A stretch of DNA of 64,000 nt from a phage. This document shows, piece by piece, positions 480-43,808 of the stretch. The notes beneath the pieces were generated by a model. It had not been told where the DNA came from, did no database searches, and saw only the letters and a list, made by a program, of their open reading frames with translations. The DNA lies in the sequence record PX104378.1; one strand, 5' to 3'. Made by a program: the position numbers and the translations under genes. The first letter of the stretch is position 1. Each line of letters opens with the position of its first letter.

Positions 480-2531
480 TTACATTTTAAATTTATCTGG
501 CATTGCGTCTACAGATACCAGATCAGCGATAAGCTGACGTAGAGTTGCCTTATCTGCTTTCTTACGTTCGGTTTTAGCTTCGGTAATAAAGCTGGAGAAA
601 GACAGGTCAGAAGCAGGTTTAACAACACCTTCACGGATGAATGCATCACCGTCCGCGATCATCTCGCCAGATTCTTGTAATGCTGCCAGTTCATTTTTGT
701 TCATAATATGTGCCTCAATGTAATAAGTTTCTTGTGAATCCGTCGATGCCGTAGCACGAGTTACCGTATCAAAGGATAACACAACACCGCGAGGAAGTAA
801 AATCTCGCATTCTTTGTAAGCAAATGCTTTGTTACCTACTGGCAATACGGGGATGTTTTCCGCGCCAGCAATGGAGAAAGCAACATTAGCGCCACCTTCA
901 CCGCGAGATCCAGCCATAGAATCTACACCAGCAACGGCACTAGCCACGTTTGCATTCCAGCCGCCAAAAATGTTAGGTGCAAGGGAAGTGCTCACATAGT
1001 TTTTAAAGTAAAACGCTTTTTGCTTACGTGCAGTTTCCCACATTTGCGACCGGAAGTCCATACCACGATACAGAATAGTACCAGGATCAAGTTTAACGCC
1101 ATAGTTGGAGAAGGCATTATCCAGTGCATCGCACATCTTGACCAATTCTTCTGGATCTGCGATGCCTTCAAACTCTTCCAGCTTACGGTCGGTTAGGAAG
1201 TTGTTCATATTGATGTATGCTGCATCGGCATATTCGCTCAACACAAAACCTTCCGCGCCCGGCAGATCAAGATCAATATCTGCCATCATTTCACCCATGT
1301 TGCTAGCAATTGCTTCAAACATACCGGAAGCAACATTACGTAGGGCATCGGTTTTAATCTGTGTGATGTGACTACGCAGCATTTCAGCTTTTACATCTGC
1401 TGGCATAGACTGGTCTACTCGATCCATTGCCAGGGCGGTGATCTTGTTTTCGAATACTTCCTCGCTCATGATTTCTTTTAAGCGTTTGATTGATGCTGCG
1501 ATAACTTCCGCAGACAACGGATCATATTGATCCTGAACTTTTACCAGTTCGCTTACTGCATATTTTGCATCGGCTTCGCTTTCAAAAATAGTACGCATGA
1601 AACCATAGCGAGTGATAATATCACTTGTCCAGTCATTCAGAGAACGAGCGGTTGAACGTTCTAAGGCTTGACGATCAATCAGAGTATTAAACTGTTTCTT
1701 AGGTTCGGCTTCGGTGATATCTTCTTCTGGTTTAAGATTAATTTTTTCTGGATGATTCACGTAGTCGCTGTTATATGTCGCTTGAGTTTTCAGCATTTCT
1801 TCTTTAGTCAAACGAGATTTAGCCGCTACGCGTTGTTCCGCTTCCGCGTTTCGTTCTTCTTCTGACACAAGACTAGCCGCATACGCCTCATCTTTAGTCA
1901 GAGATTCACCAGTAGCCTTAGATACCCAGCGATCACCTAAATCACTTTCTACTTTAGTGAACAAGGATTCATCAAGTTTAATCCCTTTAATCTTATCAAT
2001 CGCCATCCCGCGACGCTTGACAACAACTAAAGCGATCTTTTTGCTGGTCATTACTTCCTGCTGGAATACTTCAAACTTCGGTGTACGACGCACCAAACGC
2101 TCTATAACGCGCTTAACCAGTTCGGTCTTACCTTTCATGCGGGATACGTTAAAACGGAACATAACAGCGTCTAATTGCGCTTTACGGGCTGTTTCCATAA
2201 CCACATCAAAAGCACTTGCCATAACTGCAATCGGGTTATCGCCTAGACCATTTTTAAGCTGTACAATACGACCGCTTTTGTTCATTTCGCACAGTACAAC
2301 ATGTGCGGTCTTGTCACCCATACGAATGATTTTAGGTGTTTTGTTGGTGAAGTTACAAAGACGGACAATCACATCTTTATCGCGTGTCTGTACTGCAAAA
2401 AGCTGTTTAGGATTCTGCTTAGGCTTTAAGCACTGTACCGGAGCAATACTGCCAAAGTTTTCTTCCTCTTCCGTCAACAGCCATTTCTCGAAAGATTCAA
2501 TCATTAGATCGTCGATTTCTAAGTTAAACAT
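480..2531 (-). CDS. alt: Alt-like ADP-ribosyltransferase (virion protein)
   Basis: 683 aa (T4 Alt 682 aa); C-terminal R-S-ExE ART signature (YRGMD, STS, ECEILLPRG); GAGGA SD. Confidence 0.85.
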   Translation of the reverse strand: MFNLEIDDLMIESFEKWLLTEEEENFGSIAPVQCLKPKQNPKQLFAVQTRDKDVIVRLCNFTNKTPKIIRMGDKTAHVVLCEMNKSGRIVQLKNGLGDNPIAVMASAFDVVMETARKAQLDAVMFRFNVSRMKGKTELVKRVIERLVRRTPKFEVFQQEVMTSKKIALVVVKRRGMAIDKIKGIKLDESLFTKVESDLGDRWVSKATGESLTKDEAYAASLVSEEERNAEAEQRVAAKSRLTKEEMLKTQATYNSDYVNHPEKINLKPEEDITEAEPKKQFNTLIDRQALERSTARSLNDWTSDIITRYGFMRTIFESEADAKYAVSELVKVQDQYDPLSAEVIAASIKRLKEIMSEEVFENKITALAMDRVDQSMPADVKAEMLRSHITQIKTDALRNVASGMFEAIASNMGEMMADIDLDLPGAEGFVLSEYADAAYINMNNFLTDRKLEEFEGIADPEELVKMCDALDNAFSNYGVKLDPGTILYRGMDFRSQMWETARKQKAFYFKNYVSTSLAPNIFGGWNANVASAVAGVDSMAGSRGEGGANVAFSIAGAENIPVLPVGNKAFAYKECEILLPRGVVLSFDTVTRATASTDSQETYYIEAHIMNKNELAALQESGEMIADGDAFIREGVVKPASDLSFSSFITEAKTERKKADKATLRQLIADLVSVDAMPDKFKM

Positions 2532-2564
2532 TTTATATCCTCTAGTTGATAACCTATAAACCTA

Positions 2565-2572
2565 TATTTATG
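2565..2572 (-). promoter_or_regulatory. possible late promoter for alt
   Basis: CATAAATA on minus strand (7/8 match to T4 late TATAAATA) about 34 nt upstream of alt ATG. Confidence 0.3.
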
Positions 2573-2573
2573 A

Positions 2574-2596
2574 AAAAGGGGCTTTACGCCCCTTTT
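2574..2596 (-). terminator. GC hairpin terminator
   Basis: GGGGC-TTTAC-GCCCC stem flanked by A/T runs, directly after stop of 2598..2810. Confidence 0.5.
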
Positions 2597-2597
2597 A

Positions 2598-2810
2598 TTA
2601 TAATGCACCATCAAGCAATTGCTCTAAGGTGTATCCTGAATAGTCTTTTTCAATCAGGATATATTTTCCTACTCGTTTAATCCAGCCACGCATTTCAACG
2701 TATTCTGCGTAGTTGATGGTACGAGTTGTTCCATCTTCCAGTAATGCAGTACCGATTTCGTTGATGCGGTCATAAGTTACGTCGGTAATGATGATTTCGA
2801 TGTTAGCCAT
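2598..2810 (-). CDS. hypothetical early protein (70 aa)
   Basis: ORF starting MANIE, preceded by conserved leader and GGAG SD of a promoter cassette. Confidence 0.55.
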   Translation of the reverse strand: MANIEIIITDVTYDRINEIGTALLEDGTTRTINYAEYVEMRGWIKRVGKYILIEKDYSGYTLEQLLDGAL

Positions 2811-2846
2811 TTGATACTCCTTAGTAGTTCGTTTCGGTATGTGTGC

Positions 2847-2875
2847 ATTATAGGGGATCGATGATCCCCTGTCAA
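2847..2875 (-). promoter_or_regulatory. sigma70-type early promoter cassette
   Basis: minus strand TTGACA-GGGGATCATCGATCCCC(17)-TATAAT; palindromic spacer with two GATC. Confidence 0.6.
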
Positions 2876-2882
2876 CAACTTT

Positions 2883-3401
2883 TTAGTTATTTTTTAATTG
2901 CTCATCTTGCAATAAAGCAATCACATGCTGGCGATGTTCTTCCGATTGAGGCACACCGAAAAAGTTTGTTTTGTAGAAATACTCTAATCGGTCTTCTCGT
3001 GTGCTCTCTTCCATCATGATCGCGGGTAGTCCGAGATTTCGGAAACGTCGCTTTTCTGCTGGCGTAAAATCGCTGTAATACAGCATAGAATCATCATTAC
3101 CAGCAATGCTAAACTCATCCTTCATGAAGGAGAATATTGCGTTTAAACGCTGTTTACCGTCCACTATTTCGATTTCATAGCGAGAGCCATCATCAATCTT
3201 AGCCATTGCGATAGCACCAACCGGAAAATCATTAATCAGGTTTTCGATAAACATACGTTTGTTTTCGGTGTCCCATACCAAAGGACGCTGATAATCTGGG
3301 TTCATGTTGATATAGCCATCTTCTAACCACGCCTCATAAACAGAGATGACAAAGTTTTTAGTATTGGTATAGTAACGGCGTTTAGGAGTTAAACGGTTCA
3401 T
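2883..3401 (-). CDS. standalone DUF262 / ParB-like domain protein
   Basis: 172 aa; YQRPLVW and IVDGKQRLNAIF match the DUF262 QR..VW and DGQQR motifs; no DUF1524/HNH partner domain. Confidence 0.6.
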   Translation of the reverse strand: MNRLTPKRRYYTNTKNFVISVYEAWLEDGYINMNPDYQRPLVWDTENKRMFIENLINDFPVGAIAMAKIDDGSRYEIEIVDGKQRLNAIFSFMKDEFSIAGNDDSMLYYSDFTPAEKRRFRNLGLPAIMMEESTREDRLEYFYKTNFFGVPQSEEHRQHVIALLQDEQLKNN

Positions 3402-3577
3402 AGTGTGCTTACCTTTTCAATATATGCGTCCGCATACTGGCGAATGCTCATTTCTTCTCGTACTGCTGCTACAAATTCTTTCATGGATTCAAACCATTTG
3501 TAGGTGTCGCGATACATGACCAACTCTTCCCAAGTAAGATCGCAAATCTCTTTACCGTGTAGTTGTGGTGTTATCAT
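3398..3577 (-). CDS. small hypothetical protein (59 aa)
   Basis: ATGA start/stop overlaps with both neighbours (translational coupling); not in ORF track because under 60 aa. Confidence 0.4.
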   Translation of the reverse strand: MITPQLHGKEICDLTWEELVMYRDTYKWFESMKEFVAAVREEMSIRQYADAYIEKVSTL

Positions 3578-3912
3578 AATATAGTTCTCCTGAATGGATC
3601 ATCACGTAAATCAATATCTTTTAAGAACTCATCCCATGAATAGCGGATATTGTTCTTAATTCTCCAGATAAGCGCAGGGATTGAACGCTCTCCCATCTGG
3701 AAGTATGGATCGTATGATCCGTATGCCCAATATGCTACTACAATTCCACAATCAGCGCAATAGTATTCTATTTCACTTGCTGGCGACAAAAGTCCATCAA
3801 TATGATCAGTGATCTTGCTTTCGATGTTATGGCTATGACAATCAGGGCAACGGATGCAATGACCTTGTTTATCGTAATTTGACGTTAGCGAATACTTAAA
3901 CAATCTCATCAT
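3574..3912 (-). CDS. Cys/His-rich Zn-binding protein (112 aa)
   Basis: CIRCPDCHSH ... CADCG cysteine/histidine cluster; 4-nt overlaps with flanking genes. Confidence 0.5.
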   Translation of the reverse strand: MMRLFKYSLTSNYDKQGHCIRCPDCHSHNIESKITDHIDGLLSPASEIEYYCADCGIVVAYWAYGSYDPYFQMGERSIPALIWRIKNNIRYSWDEFLKDIDLRDDPFRRTIL

Positions 3913-4625
3913 AGATCCTTATTGGCTTCAAATACTGCCTTTGCGAATCCTCGCGGGGTAAGTGACCTGATAGTCTTTGTTCTGGTTCCTTTCCCGCCTA
4001 GCTTAGAATGCTGTTTACTGTACCCTTTCTCAATCGGCAACGGTTTCTTTTCTGGCATTATAAAGCCTTGTCCGGTCCATAAGCAAGTCTTTTTCGGGTA
4101 CATATCACGGGCGGCAATATACTCAGGAAACGTAGGATGTATATCATCTTCCGGCAAATAACCGCCATATTCCCACGGGTGGAACATGTAATCAGGCTTA
4201 CGCCACATGCTAGAGATAACGCTTACAGGATTCTCTATCATGTAGGGAACTCCTAGCCATTCACCCAAATAAGCGGTTATTTTAGCTGCCCGTACATCAT
4301 GAACTTGAATTAATGGTCCTTGCTCTCGTTTCTTTCGTTCAAAGTGTGCAGCGCCACTAACAGCTAAATTGGTACACGGTGGGAATGCAAAGATAATATC
4401 CGGTTTCCCCCATTCAAGGTCCATTGCTCTTTCCAGCCAATTCAAATCAATCCATGTGTTTACATAGGTAATGTTTGGATGTTCAAATCGGGTATTATAT
4501 TTTTTGTATGTACCGTGGTCGCCGTCGTCAGCATTGAAGCAGATCACCTTATGACCTGCTTTAGCCCATTCTAGCCCCATTATCCCCGATCCGTCAAAGT
4601 TGCAGAATATTAATTTTTGTTTCAT
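3909..4625 (-). CDS. truncated C5-cytosine methyltransferase-like protein
   Basis: 238 aa; FCNFDGSGIMG (motif I FxGxG), FPPCTNLAVSG (motif IV PC), YMIENP (motif VI ENV-like); no TRD or motifs IX-X. Confidence 0.5.
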   Translation of the reverse strand: MKQKLIFCNFDGSGIMGLEWAKAGHKVICFNADDGDHGTYKKYNTRFEHPNITYVNTWIDLNWLERAMDLEWGKPDIIFAFPPCTNLAVSGAAHFERKKREQGPLIQVHDVRAAKITAYLGEWLGVPYMIENPVSVISSMWRKPDYMFHPWEYGGYLPEDDIHPTFPEYIAARDMYPKKTCLWTGQGFIMPEKKPLPIEKGYSKQHSKLGGKGTRTKTIRSLTPRGFAKAVFEANKDL

Positions 4626-4867
4626 ATACGCCCCTTTAACCCAACACAGATTTTAGAAGGTTCTTTACCGTGCCACATTAAGTAAAGTCCGTTAGTGCGG
4701 CCTTGTTTTGTATATGATTCTTTTCTAATCTTCTTATAGTGTCGTGCTTCCTCAACCGATTGTTTAGAATACCAATCATAAAGGAAGATGAACAAAGGCC
4801 AACCATTAGCGGCCTTAATGCAGTTATTAAGAAATTCCTTATTGCGTTTAATTAATTTTCTTTTCAC
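4622..4867 (-). CDS. hypothetical basic protein (81 aa)
   Basis: ORF with 4-nt overlaps to both neighbours. Confidence 0.5.
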   Translation of the reverse strand: MKRKLIKRNKEFLNNCIKAANGWPLFIFLYDWYSKQSVEEARHYKKIRKESYTKQGRTNGLYLMWHGKEPSKICVGLKGRI

Positions 4868-5115
4868 GCTGCCCCCGTTGGTTTGATAGTAACAGAATCT
4901 AAAAGACCTTTGTTAGCCAGTTCGCGGCAAGTTTTCAGATCCGCAACTTCCCAGCCAGCCGCAATCAGGTTATCTATGAGGCTGTTAGCAACTTCCTCGC
5001 TCATGAAAGAGCACTGTTTGCCGATGGTGTAGCGTACACGCTGTAATTTCAGTTTACGGAAGCCTTTAACGTTCAGGTCTTTAGCGATTTTCTTTGCGGT
5101 TTCGATGTTAGCCAT
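4864..5115 (-). CDS. hypothetical protein (83 aa), first gene of coupled operon
   Basis: starts MANIE; conserved leader AGGAGAATCAAACAATG downstream of promoter cassette. Confidence 0.55.
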   Translation of the reverse strand: MANIETAKKIAKDLNVKGFRKLKLQRVRYTIGKQCSFMSEEVANSLIDNLIAAGWEVADLKTCRELANKGLLDSVTIKPTGAA

Positions 5116-5155
5116 TGTTTGATTCTCCTAAGTGGTATCTCGTCTTGATGGTTGT

Positions 5156-5184
5156 ATTGTAGGGGAGTTATCCTCCCCTGTCAA
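5156..5184 (-). promoter_or_regulatory. sigma70-type early promoter cassette
   Basis: TTGACA-GGGGAGGATAACTCCCC(17)-TACAAT on minus strand. Confidence 0.55.
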
Positions 5185-5198
5185 CACTTTTTATAAAA

Positions 5199-5366
5199 TT
5201 ATTTGTTAATTTCTGGTGCGTTGCTAGGATAGTAACCTTCTTTAACTCCGAGGTATTTCGCAACCATCCCTACAATCTTCTGTGCTACTACAATGTCAAA
5301 TTTCAGATAATCTTCGCCGTGGGTTTCAATGATATATGCTTCACATGCTGCTTTAGTCTCGAACAT
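5199..5366 (-). CDS. small hypothetical protein (55 aa), paralog of 8461..8628
   Basis: MFETKAACEAYIIETHGEDYLKFDIVVAQKIVGMVAKYLGVKEGYYPSNAPEINK; nearly identical to the 8461..8628 product. Confidence 0.5.
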   Translation of the reverse strand: MFETKAACEAYIIETHGEDYLKFDIVVAQKIVGMVAKYLGVKEGYYPSNAPEINK

Positions 5367-5399
5367 TTTGATTCTCCTATTTCGTTTCGGTATGTGTGT

Positions 5400-5428
5400 A
5401 TTATAGGGGATCTCCCGATCCCCGTCAA
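5400..5428 (-). promoter_or_regulatory. sigma70-type early promoter cassette
   Basis: TTGACG-GGGATCGGGAGATCCCC(17)-TATAAT on minus strand. Confidence 0.55.
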
Positions 5429-5442
5429 CAACTTTTTTAAAA

Positions 5443-5724
5443 TTATTCGTGATTAGTTTCGATGTTGTACATTTTGCACCAGTTCAGCCAATCGCCCAGA
5501 TCTTGATAGTTGATGCTTTTATCTGCGGCCATCGTTTTTGTCTTGATACCCATATGTGCGTTATGAGTAAGCATTTTTACAGTGAACTCAATTTTATCGC
5601 CTTTAGCTTTAACATCAACCAGTTTGGTCCACTGGCTACCAGCACCGCGAATGTTCATACCAACGATGTTTCCGATGTATGCTTCTTTGTTTTTCAGGAT
5701 TTCGGTTGCTTTGATGAATTTCAT
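5443..5724 (-). CDS. hypothetical protein (93 aa)
   Basis: ORF behind cassette leader GGAGAATCAAAAATG. Confidence 0.55.
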   Translation of the reverse strand: MKFIKATEILKNKEAYIGNIVGMNIRGAGSQWTKLVDVKAKGDKIEFTVKMLTHNAHMGIKTKTMAADKSINYQDLGDWLNWCKMYNIETNHE

Positions 5725-8662: not shown

Positions 8663-8692
8663 ATTATAGGGGATCGGTGACCCCCCTGTCAA
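8663..8692 (-). promoter_or_regulatory. sigma70-type early promoter cassette
   Basis: TTGACA-GGGGGGTCACCGATCCCC(18)-TATAAT on minus strand. Confidence 0.55.
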
Positions 8693-20508: not shown

Positions 20509-20537
20509 ATTATAGCGGGGATTTCTCCCCGCGTCAA
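20509..20537 (-). promoter_or_regulatory. sigma70-type early promoter cassette
   Basis: TTGACG-CGGGGAGAAATCCCCGC(17)-TATAAT immediately after nrdA stop. Confidence 0.55.
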
Positions 20538-43779: not shown

Positions 43780-43808
43780 ATTGTAGGGGATCGCCGATCC
43801 CCTGTCAA
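43780..43808 (-). promoter_or_regulatory. sigma70-type early promoter cassette
   Basis: TTGACA-GGGGATCGGCGATCCCC(17)-TACAAT on minus strand. Confidence 0.55.

Follow-up and report, generated by a model that had tools for sequence, protein, structure and literature searches.

A PeSL-bounded, translationally coupled early operon of a Krischvirus with a predicted Dcm-like C5-cytosine methyltransferase among accessory genes

Introduction

Promoter-early stem-loop (PeSL) cassettes characterize the hyperplastic (accessory-gene) regions of phages RB49 and phi1 (Arbiol, Comeau et al. 2010, PMC2839356; PMC4122927). They combine a sigma-70 promoter, bearing a G/C stem-loop between its -35 and -10 elements, with a conserved UTR and Shine-Dalgarno sequence. 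The accessory genes that they flank amount to one or two ORFs in most described cassettes, and close relatives differ by PeSL-bounded insertions and deletions. The PeSLs of RB49 have been shown by experiment to work as both promoters and terminators (PMC2839356). RB49 DNA is cut by HpaII and NheI, indicating that it carries no global modification, a situation that a site-specific methylase fits.

Phage-borne methylases of a suitable kind have been described in T1-like siphoviruses. When expressed alone, K42 Dcm, which is near-identical to the enzyme of phage KarlJaspers, triggers retron Ec86 and raises msDNA 5mC, while the C82A/E128A/K175A/K176A mutant does neither; the same study superposed its enzyme on DNMT3A, and assumed the site specificity of the phage Dcm family from E. 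coli Dcm, with msDNA mutagenesis as the sole support (bioRxiv 10.1101/2023.08.16.553469). A second group of proteins relevant here, the GmrSD/BrxU/SspE family, joins a DUF262 NTPase domain with a DGQQR-type motif and a ParB/Srx fold to a C-terminal DUF1524/HNH nuclease. Here we describe an early operon in which relatives of both occur together.

Results

Operon boundaries and gene packing

The whole stretch of DNA analyzed (64 kb, hereafter the window) is DNA of a Krischvirus, a T4-type coliphage resembling RB49. A preliminary description of this DNA proposed one promoter followed by six ORFs of 83, 81, 238, 112, 59 and 172 aa, and both the ORF list and the sequence agree with it. All six lie on the minus strand: ORF1 (4864..5115, 83 aa; equivalent to RB49p190), ORF2 (4622..4867, 81 aa, GTG start; RB49p189.1), ORF3 (3909..4625, 238 aa, the putative Dcm-like C5-cytosine methyltransferase; RB49p189), ORF4 (3574..3912, 112 aa, or 111 aa if the second ATG is used as the start, a zinc-ribbon protein; RB49p188), ORF5 (3398..3577, 59 aa, a lineage-specific insertion without an RB49 equivalent) and ORF6 (2883..3401, 172 aa, a standalone DUF262 protein; RB49p187). 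The cluster is equivalent to RB49 ORFs 190 to 187. It is not present in T4-proper, as expected from the earlier remark that this gene combination was not recognized from T4.

A PeSL-type early promoter (5156..5184, minus strand; TTGACA-17 nt-TACAAT) matched the consensus at 11 of 12 positions in a promoter scan. Its 17-nt spacer carries a GGGGAG/CTCCCC stem-loop (-19.4 kcal/mol, z = -5.6), and a conserved 5'UTR with a Shine-Dalgarno sequence lies downstream (5116..5155, minus strand). This architecture is repeated at 43808, 8692, 5428 and 2875, with a variant at 20537. The copy downstream of the operon (2847..2875, minus strand; TTGACA-GGGGATCATCGATCCCC-TATAAT) is a 12/12 promoter match whose stem-loop folds at -14.1 kcal/mol (z = -3.6). 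By analogy with the RB49 elements it probably terminates operon transcription and drives the next cassette, a 70-aa ORF (2598..2810). Inside the operon, the promoter scan revealed no comparably strong promoter and no convincing terminator, and an Rfam search over 2400..5600 returned nothing. As in RB49 and phi1, both borders carry a sigma-70 promoter enclosing a stem-loop, together with the conserved UTR/Shine-Dalgarno sequence, and indels occur at the cassette level: the ORF186 cassette, found in RB49 and FL04, is missing from this phage. Unlike most described PeSL cassettes, this one holds five or six tightly coupled ORFs.

Each of the five junctions is a 4-nt overlap. The overlap had been given as ATGA throughout, which applies to four junctions, while the GTG start of the 81-aa ORF makes the first one GTGA. 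A Shine-Dalgarno-like purine run can be read upstream of every start, such that at each junction the stop and start overlap and the upstream gene itself contains a Shine-Dalgarno sequence. In a crude whole-window gene call, 4-nt overlaps account for eleven of 104 same-strand junctions, five of them consecutive in this operon, and elsewhere in that call overlapping junctions of whatever length came at most two in a row. The operon is therefore the most tightly packed part of the window, as first claimed. Taken together, these features support the prediction that the ORFs form one early transcription unit whose geometry is that of translational coupling; fixed-ratio co-expression of its products is conceivable. 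Uninterrupted 4-nt coupling over five junctions is unusual even within this window.

A minimal Dcm-like methylase

The 238-aa protein matched phrog_757 (E 1e-90) and is 56% identical over 237 aa to bas06_0055 of KarlJaspers (711-bp gene, 236 aa; E 2e-91). It carries motif I (F10-DGSG), motif IV (PPC, Cys84), motif VI (ENP, Glu131) and K178/K179; in K42 Dcm, the counterparts of C84, E131 and K178/K179 are C82, E128 and K175/K176. The SAM motif FxGxG is formed by F10-G12-S13-G14, and most catalytic and SAM residues are invariant in 30 family members. The protein has a C5-cytosine methyltransferase fold with DNMT3 as the closest match, although a PDB sequence search returned nothing. Against Pfam PF00145 (DNA_methylase) it scored 13.4 bits, below the gathering cut-off of 22, with residues 10-100 alone matched. 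In contrast to PF00145 enzymes such as E. coli Dcm, M.HhaI and M.HaeIII, it is ~90-230 aa shorter, and the space from the motif VIII region to IX/X holds ~30 aa in place of a discrete target-recognition domain, which puts it outside the canonical family. The C5-methyltransferase-like core suggested at the outset is thus borne out below the Pfam threshold, by the phrog_757 match and clear fold matches.

The full-length homology, similar size (238 vs 236 aa), catalytic Cys/Glu/Lys-Lys residues and DNMT3-like fold are shared with KarlJaspers/K42 Dcm. The setting differs: whereas the KarlJaspers/K42-type gene resides in a T1-like siphovirus near helicase/primase genes, the gene described here belongs to a T4-type myovirus and sits within a coupled operon among unrelated neighbors. 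As judged from its sequence, the 238-aa protein is clearly assignable to the phage Dcm-like minimal C5-cytosine methyltransferase family (phrog_757), and the one clearly assignable enzyme of the operon therefore belongs to a small, phage-borne family that has already been studied. A 223-aa form starting at an internal Met, given by some gene callers and by an 'alternative start' note for RB49, was rejected because it would lose the invariant SAM-binding FDGSG motif.

We also examined the sites that such an enzyme might modify. GAATTC, GGATCC and AAGCTT have zero sites in the window; restriction pressure on the unmodified genome is therefore real. Restriction-site avoidance in the window is extreme. 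CCWGG occurs 31 times versus 72 expected (o/e 0.43, a 2.3-fold depletion), whereas in KarlJaspers it is not depleted (123 observed vs 118 expected, o/e 1.04). This difference makes the target site of the 238-aa methylase uncertain. By analogy, the protein would form 5mC and the methylated site is probably CCWGG, but at 56% identity to the KarlJaspers enzyme its specificity may differ. Depletion of CCWGG in the window is unexpected if the site is fully protected there. The most likely function of the methylase is anti-restriction, and we infer a corresponding benefit to the phage.

A DUF262 protein consisting of the core domain

The 172-aa protein matched Pfam GmrSD_N (PF03235) at E 4e-20, in keeping with the standalone DUF262 protein originally proposed. 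It bears the motifs YQRxxVW, DGKQR and NFxGVPQSEEH, of which DGKQR is invariant in the homologue alignment, and its fold is ParB/Srx, resembling the N-domains of SspE and BrxU. Like the GmrSD/BrxU/SspE family, it possesses an N-terminal-type DUF262 domain with a DGQQR-type motif (here DGKQR). In contrast to that family, it stops after the core domain, with neither a fused C-terminal DUF1524/HNH nuclease nor an adjacent GmrD-like gene, the next gene downstream being the 70-aa ORF behind the PeSL. Its nearest relatives are also short and also without a nuclease domain, and the N-terminal extension of longer relatives (270-290 aa) had no Pfam identity. A word-indexed homologue search gave 7 matches, while a PDB sequence search gave chance sliding-clamp matches only.

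The zinc-ribbon protein and the small ORFs

The 112-aa protein matched phrog_2993 (E 2e-33) and, below threshold, Pfam Zn_Ribbon_TF (E 1e-4). It has four cysteines (CxxCxxC...CxxC) and a conserved YWAYG motif, and is 40% identical to a 'zinc finger protein' of 9g-like phage in which the cysteines are conserved; its sole match in a word-indexed homologue search was itself. The conserved CxxC pairs uphold the initial zinc-ribbon call in spite of the sub-threshold Pfam score, and so all three domain calls hold, at differing strengths. An NCBIfam search with the six proteins yielded zero matches.

The 83-aa protein matched phrog_14908 (E 2.5e-58) and, weakly, the C-terminal region of RT_UG35 in PADLOC (E 2.5e-5). 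The 81-aa protein matched phrog_7065 over its full length (E 3.5e-37), and its homologues in T5-like, JS98-like and Erwinia phages (34-43% identity) lie either within tRNA clusters or next to capsid genes, with no methylase near. For the 59-aa protein, Pfam and PHROG searches gave no family match. Alignment revealed its gene to be a clean ~178-nt insertion between the zinc-ribbon stop and the DUF262 start, present in only 2 of ~57 GenBank Krischvirus records, missing from RB49 and most relatives, and always at the same operon position in metagenome assemblies. It is an optional insertion restricted to a sublineage and, unlike PeSL-mediated indels, lies within the operon. RB49p186 is likewise 59 aa long, but a paralogous relationship to the 59-aa ORF was rejected, as the sequences are unrelated.

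Distribution of the genes outside Krischvirus

The five-gene order is invariant across Krischvirus genomes, which are ~97% identical to one another and for this reason largely uninformative either way. The genes were compared individually, as tblastn record counts. The methylase was found in 1526 phage records, including T1-like, rV5-like and Webervirus phages; the DUF262 gene in 306 (RB16-like, Klebsiella T4-likes, ST64B); the 81-aa gene in 167 (T5-like and others); the zinc-ribbon gene in 99 (9g-like, FelixO1-like); the 83-aa gene in 57, exclusively Krischvirus; and the 59-aa gene in 2. In about seven inspected loci (from T1-like, rV5-like, 9g-like, RB16, Morganella, T5-like and Erwinia phages and a metagenomic contig), none of the partner genes lay beside homologues of the methylase, DUF262, zinc-ribbon or 81-aa genes. 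Among the best 120 methylase homologues, all of 219-259 aa, there were no fusions with a zinc-ribbon or DUF262 domain.

These disjoint distributions bear on the earlier proposal of a stoichiometric complex or dedicated six-gene module. The order of five genes is kept in ~57 Krischvirus genomes, but in other phage groups the genes are scattered, with differing neighbors rather than a neighborhood conserved across distant genomes, an outcome that the proposal itself had named as speaking against a dedicated module. The 59-aa gene is optional, and the homologous K42 Dcm works alone. A dedicated module is consequently not supported. The operon genes look more like a mosaic of accessory genes, each acquired on its own, than like parts of one dedicated complex, and the small proteins presumably function independently.

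Discussion

The region is best explained as a PeSL-bounded early unit within the hyperplastic region of a Krischvirus with ordinary cytosine. We consider it likely that this unit is a translationally coupled mosaic accessory cassette in which a self-sufficient Dcm-like methylase provides site-specific anti-restriction. Host sigma-70 RNA polymerase would initiate at the PeSL promoter (5184..5156), transcribe the six translationally coupled ORFs and halt at the next PeSL stem-loop (~2875..2847). The 238-aa methylase, acting by itself, would modify a specific short site, probably CCWGG by analogy, in replicating phage DNA, and the methylated progeny DNA would escape cognate type II restriction, for example by EcoRII-type enzymes, above all after growth in dcm-minus hosts. 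The 172-aa DUF262-only protein would represent an NTP-binding ParB/Srx-fold switch without an effector domain, while the zinc-ribbon protein and the three small proteins would serve as separate early accessory or host-interaction factors. Compaction and coupled translation are common in T4-type early clusters, and the 4-nt overlaps may reflect both. Of the accessory DNA modification or anti-restriction module suspected initially, an anti-restriction methylase survives as the most likely role, but a dedicated module of six genes does not.

A different relationship between the methylase and the DUF262 protein was also considered, in which 5mC formed by the former exposes the DNA to type IV DUF262 nucleases (GmrSD/BrxU relatives) and the latter acts as a decoy or dominant-negative poison. 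The 172-aa protein retains NTP-binding motifs (YQR, DGKQR) in the absence of a nuclease domain, folds like the N-domains of SspE and BrxU, and shares its operon with an enzyme that by analogy forms 5mC; in addition, some host systems are known to contain both a GmrS-only and a GmrSD gene (PMC12373910). However, the homologous mini-DUF262 genes of RB16-like and Morganella phages lack a methylase of this family within ~3.5 kb, and >1400 phages have the methylase without this DUF262 protein, making a decoy role unlikely.

We think it very unlikely that the methylase instead labels the phage's DNA so that its own nucleases (a DenA homologue) can tell self from non-self, or regulates phage gene expression, with one or more small neighbors countering Ec86-type sensing. 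RB49-group phages do retain DenA and dCTPase homologues despite their unmodified cytosine, and a review has suggested that RB49-group methylases might protect against these enzymes (PMC8056088). CCWGG is depleted in spite of the methylase, and the propagation host of RB49 is E. coli B, a lineage whose derivative BL21(DE3) carries native Ec86, though the methylase family triggers Ec86. Nevertheless, 31 CCWGG sites per 64 kb are too sparse for global self-marking, and in Pfam, PHROG, PADLOC and NCBIfam searches the small proteins matched no known anti-defense family.

Least credible is a single stoichiometric DNA-modification/anti-restriction complex of all six products, for example with the zinc ribbon as specificity subunit for the TRD-less methylase and DUF262 as DNA-loading/NTPase subunit, since the longest run of 4-nt overlaps in the window, the ~30 aa in place of a normal target-recognition domain and the order kept in ~57 Krischvirus genomes are outweighed by homologues without partner genes in other phage groups, the activity of K42 Dcm by itself, the optional 59-aa gene and the zero fusion proteins among the best 120 methylase homologues.

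The favored reading remains a mosaic cassette with a self-sufficient anti-restriction methylase. It is improbable that the DUF262 protein, possibly together with its small neighbors, is an anti-defense partner, whether as a decoy for modification-dependent DUF262 nucleases or as a block to an Ec86-type sensor; if true, the operon would pair DNA modification with protection from the immunity that detects that modification. As a new six-gene module is not upheld, the value of the operon lies chiefly in annotation and in pointing to its small proteins. In the T4-type Krischviruses cytosine is unmodified, and their survival of restriction must rest on means other than hmC. A retron-triggering type of Dcm-like methylase in a Krischvirus early cassette would offer a testable handle on which residual sites are protected and on why E. 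coli B with Ec86 supports growth of these phages, and the cassette likewise provides a handle on the role of a nuclease-less DUF262 protein in a phage.

An unbroken run of coupled genes

The source of the window is a Krischvirus genome, that of an RB49-like T4-type coliphage, and its 2.7-kb operon region is matched by 55 phage records at 95-99% identity, with at least 80% of the length covered. The ORF list and the sequence place six minus-strand ORFs (83, 81, 238, 112, 59 and 172 aa) exactly where the preliminary description had put them; the RB49 cluster consists of ORFs 190, 189.1, 189, 188 and 187. Successive ORFs overlap by 4 nt at all five junctions, as it had reported, but the overlap is not ATGA throughout: the first reads GTGA, the 81-aa ORF having a GTG start, and the other four read ATGA. 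A purine-rich Shine-Dalgarno element precedes every start, within the upstream gene. In a crude gene call of the whole window, 4-nt overlaps occurred at 11 of 104 same-strand junctions, and 5 of the 11 form the operon's unbroken run; other runs of overlapping junctions reached two at most. Thus, the operon does show the tightest packing in the window, and its chain of coupled junctions is both genuine and unusually long.

The operon lies in a PeSL-bounded cassette

The operon promoter (5184..5156, minus strand) reads TTGACA-17 nt-TACAAT, with a GGGGAG...CTCCCC hairpin in its spacer (-19.4 kcal/mol, z = -5.6) and a conserved 5'UTR after it. It belongs to a family of minus-strand TTGACA-GGGG...CCCC-TAYAAT elements located at 43780..43808, 20509..20537 (a variant), 8663..8692, 5400..5428, 5156..5184 and 2847..2875, each leading into a conserved 5'UTR that ends in AGGAGAATCAAA-ATG. 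These recurring elements are promoter-early stem-loop (PeSL) cassettes as described for RB49 and phi1, where experiments identified them as strong sigma-70 promoters and terminators that mediate the shuffling of genes as modules within hyperplastic regions (PMC2839356). Their presence characterises the surrounding stretch of the window as hyperplastic and accessory. The PeSL at 2875..2847 is the downstream border of the operon, inside which a promoter/terminator scan found neither a promoter of comparable strength nor a convincing terminator; no Rfam family was found there. The ORFs after PeSLs 5184 and 2875 share identical first five codons, ATGGCTAACATCGAA (MANIE; 5101..5115 and 2796..2810, minus strand), indicating that PeSL-associated identity reaches into the start of otherwise unrelated genes.

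Between the DUF262 gene and a 70-aa ORF, RB49 and phage FL04 have one more cassette, made up of a PeSL and a 59-aa ORF (ORF186, RB49p186; 3112..3430 and 3112..3432 of the respective loci). Since this cassette is absent from the window (~2811..2882), its presence or absence is a typical PeSL-level indel polymorphism, by deletion or insertion. The operon's own 59-aa ORF is not a relative of RB49p186, the two sequences being unrelated. Directly downstream of the accessory cassettes is a gene for a 683-aa Alt-like RNA-polymerase ADP-ribosyltransferase (480..2531, minus strand); RB49 has a second Alt-related gene beyond the Alt-like one.

The 238-aa methylase is predicted to act without partners

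The 238-aa protein matched Pfam DNA_methylase weakly (13.4 bits, cut-off 22) and phrog_757 ('DNA methyltransferase') at E 1e-90. Its family comprises 7311 clusters in the protein collection, the best 120 listed all being 219-259 aa, and occurs in 1526 phage records, including T1-like, rV5-like, phAPEC8-like and Webervirus phages. Invariant across 30 aligned members are F10-x-G12-S13-G14 (SAM motif I), P82-P83-C84 (motif IV, with the catalytic cysteine), E131-N-P (motif VI), the K178 region and a C-terminal IRSLTPRG motif. Several gene callers, and an 'alternative start' note in RB49, begin the gene at internal Met16 (window 4580) to give a 223-aa product; since this would remove the invariant FDGSG SAM-binding motif, such annotations are probably wrong.

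The trigger of retron Ec86 is the 711-bp 'Dcm-like' gene of K42, a KarlJaspers-like T1-type phage; expressed alone it raises 5mC on retron msDNA and activates Ec86, and a C82A/E128A/K175A/K176A mutant does neither (bioRxiv 10.1101/2023.08.16.553469). The 711-bp bas06_0055 of KarlJaspers (MZ501090) encodes a protein 56% identical to the 238-aa protein over its full length (E 2e-91), and all four residues mutated in K42 are kept in both. On this similarity, the 238-aa protein belongs to an already-known family of partner-independent 5mC methyltransferases. The family's CCWGG specificity is less firmly established than its activity: it was adopted from E. coli Dcm, with support from a mutated CCTGG in the msDNA hairpin (bioRxiv 10.1101/2023.08.16.553469).

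Restriction pressure and site avoidance

RB49 DNA contains ordinary cytosine and is cleaved by HpaII and NheI (PMC4041780), so any methylation must be site-specific. Restriction pressure on the window's phage is evidently real, and its avoidance of restriction sites is extreme. The window contains zero GAATTC (expected 17), GGATCC (15), AAGCTT (14.5), TCCGGA (23), CTGAAG/CTTCAG (30), GACATC/GATGTC (19), ACTGGG/CCCAGT (19) and CCWWGG sites (13-38 across models). Strong depletion also affects GGCC, CCSGG and GGSCC but spares GATC (369 observed, 349 expected). GAACC is missing from the plus strand of the whole window (expected 34), its complement GGTTC occurring 50 times. This complete bias resembles the way in which T7, with its sites in a single orientation, evades type III restriction, but could equally reflect an mRNA-sense constraint, most window genes being on the minus strand.

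CCWGG is depleted 2.3-fold in the window (31 observed, 72 expected) and not eliminated; in KarlJaspers, which has a characterised Dcm-like methylase, it is at expectation (123 vs 118). CCSGG is strongly depleted in both. The CCWGG pattern would fit protection that is partial or recent, or the Krischvirus enzyme may recognise another site.

The remaining proteins

The 172-aa protein carries a DUF262/GmrSD_N domain (Pfam E 4e-20; PADLOC NsnA E 1e-20) with invariant YQRxxVW, DGKQR and NFxGVPQSEEH motifs. It lacks a nuclease domain, and its nearest relatives in an exhaustive profile search are standalone (165-185 aa) or have an uncharacterised N-terminal extension (270-290 aa), which rules out a GmrSD-type restriction enzyme. 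A switch of the NTP-binding ParB/Srx type is its probable identity.

In the 112-aa protein, the CxxCxxC...CxxC cysteines are conserved, and it shares a YWAYG motif with 9g-like phage proteins. The 81-aa protein has distant homologues in TrudiRoth (T5-like; 3501..3731 of its locus) and Erwinia phage FBB1 (T4-like; 3001..3231), both among tRNA genes, the former adjoining homing endonuclease genes; some JS98-like records place the match under or beside scaffold/major-capsid annotations. These contexts suggest a small mobile ORF. The 83-aa protein is restricted to Krischvirus. Residues 12-75 of its ORF (4864..5115) gave a weak but non-trivial PADLOC match to the C-terminal part (722-785 of 938) of RT_UG35, a defence reverse transcriptase (E 2.5e-5, 20.7 bits).

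The 59-aa protein occurs in only 2 of ~57 GenBank Krischvirus records; in RB49 and most relatives, the Zn-ribbon and DUF262 genes are direct neighbours. By alignment the gene is a clean ~178-nt insertion with ATGA overlaps recreated on both sides, and its position is always the same in metagenome assemblies. That most relatives do without this sixth 'subunit' argues against a six-part complex.

A probable mosaic of accessory genes

Beyond near-identical Krischvirus genomes, the six genes are essentially disjoint in distribution. Searching with all six proteins (tblastn), we found no second operon member at the homologous loci of LeonhardEuler (T1-like), WalterGehring (rV5-like), FritzHoffmann (9g-like), RB16 or Morganella phage vB_Mm5. 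Likewise, no methylase was present among annotated or called neighbours at the loci of TrudiRoth, Erwinia phage FBB1 and one metagenomic contig. The methylase usually lies close to replication genes, and the DUF262 gene in a group of unrelated small early ORFs. The preliminary description had proposed a dedicated six-gene module and had itself named scattered genes as evidence against one; with disjoint neighbourhoods, an optional 59-aa gene and a self-sufficient homologous methylase, that module is not upheld. Its operon observation stands, and its interpretation is partly supported.

Two further readings seem improbable to us: that the nuclease-less DUF262 protein acts as a decoy against DUF262-family modification-dependent nucleases attacking 5mC DNA, or that a small protein blocks Ec86-type sensing of the methylase. 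As to the latter, E. coli B serves as the propagation host of RB49 (PMC4041780), and native Ec86 is present in BL21(DE3), which is of the B lineage (bioRxiv 10.1101/2023.08.16.553469). The most plausible reading of the operon is a mosaic of accessory genes that would have been acquired independently and packed into a single early transcript, translationally coupled, within a PeSL-bounded cassette. The PeSL cassette, the phage Dcm-like methylase and the standalone DUF262 protein are already-known kinds, newly represented here.
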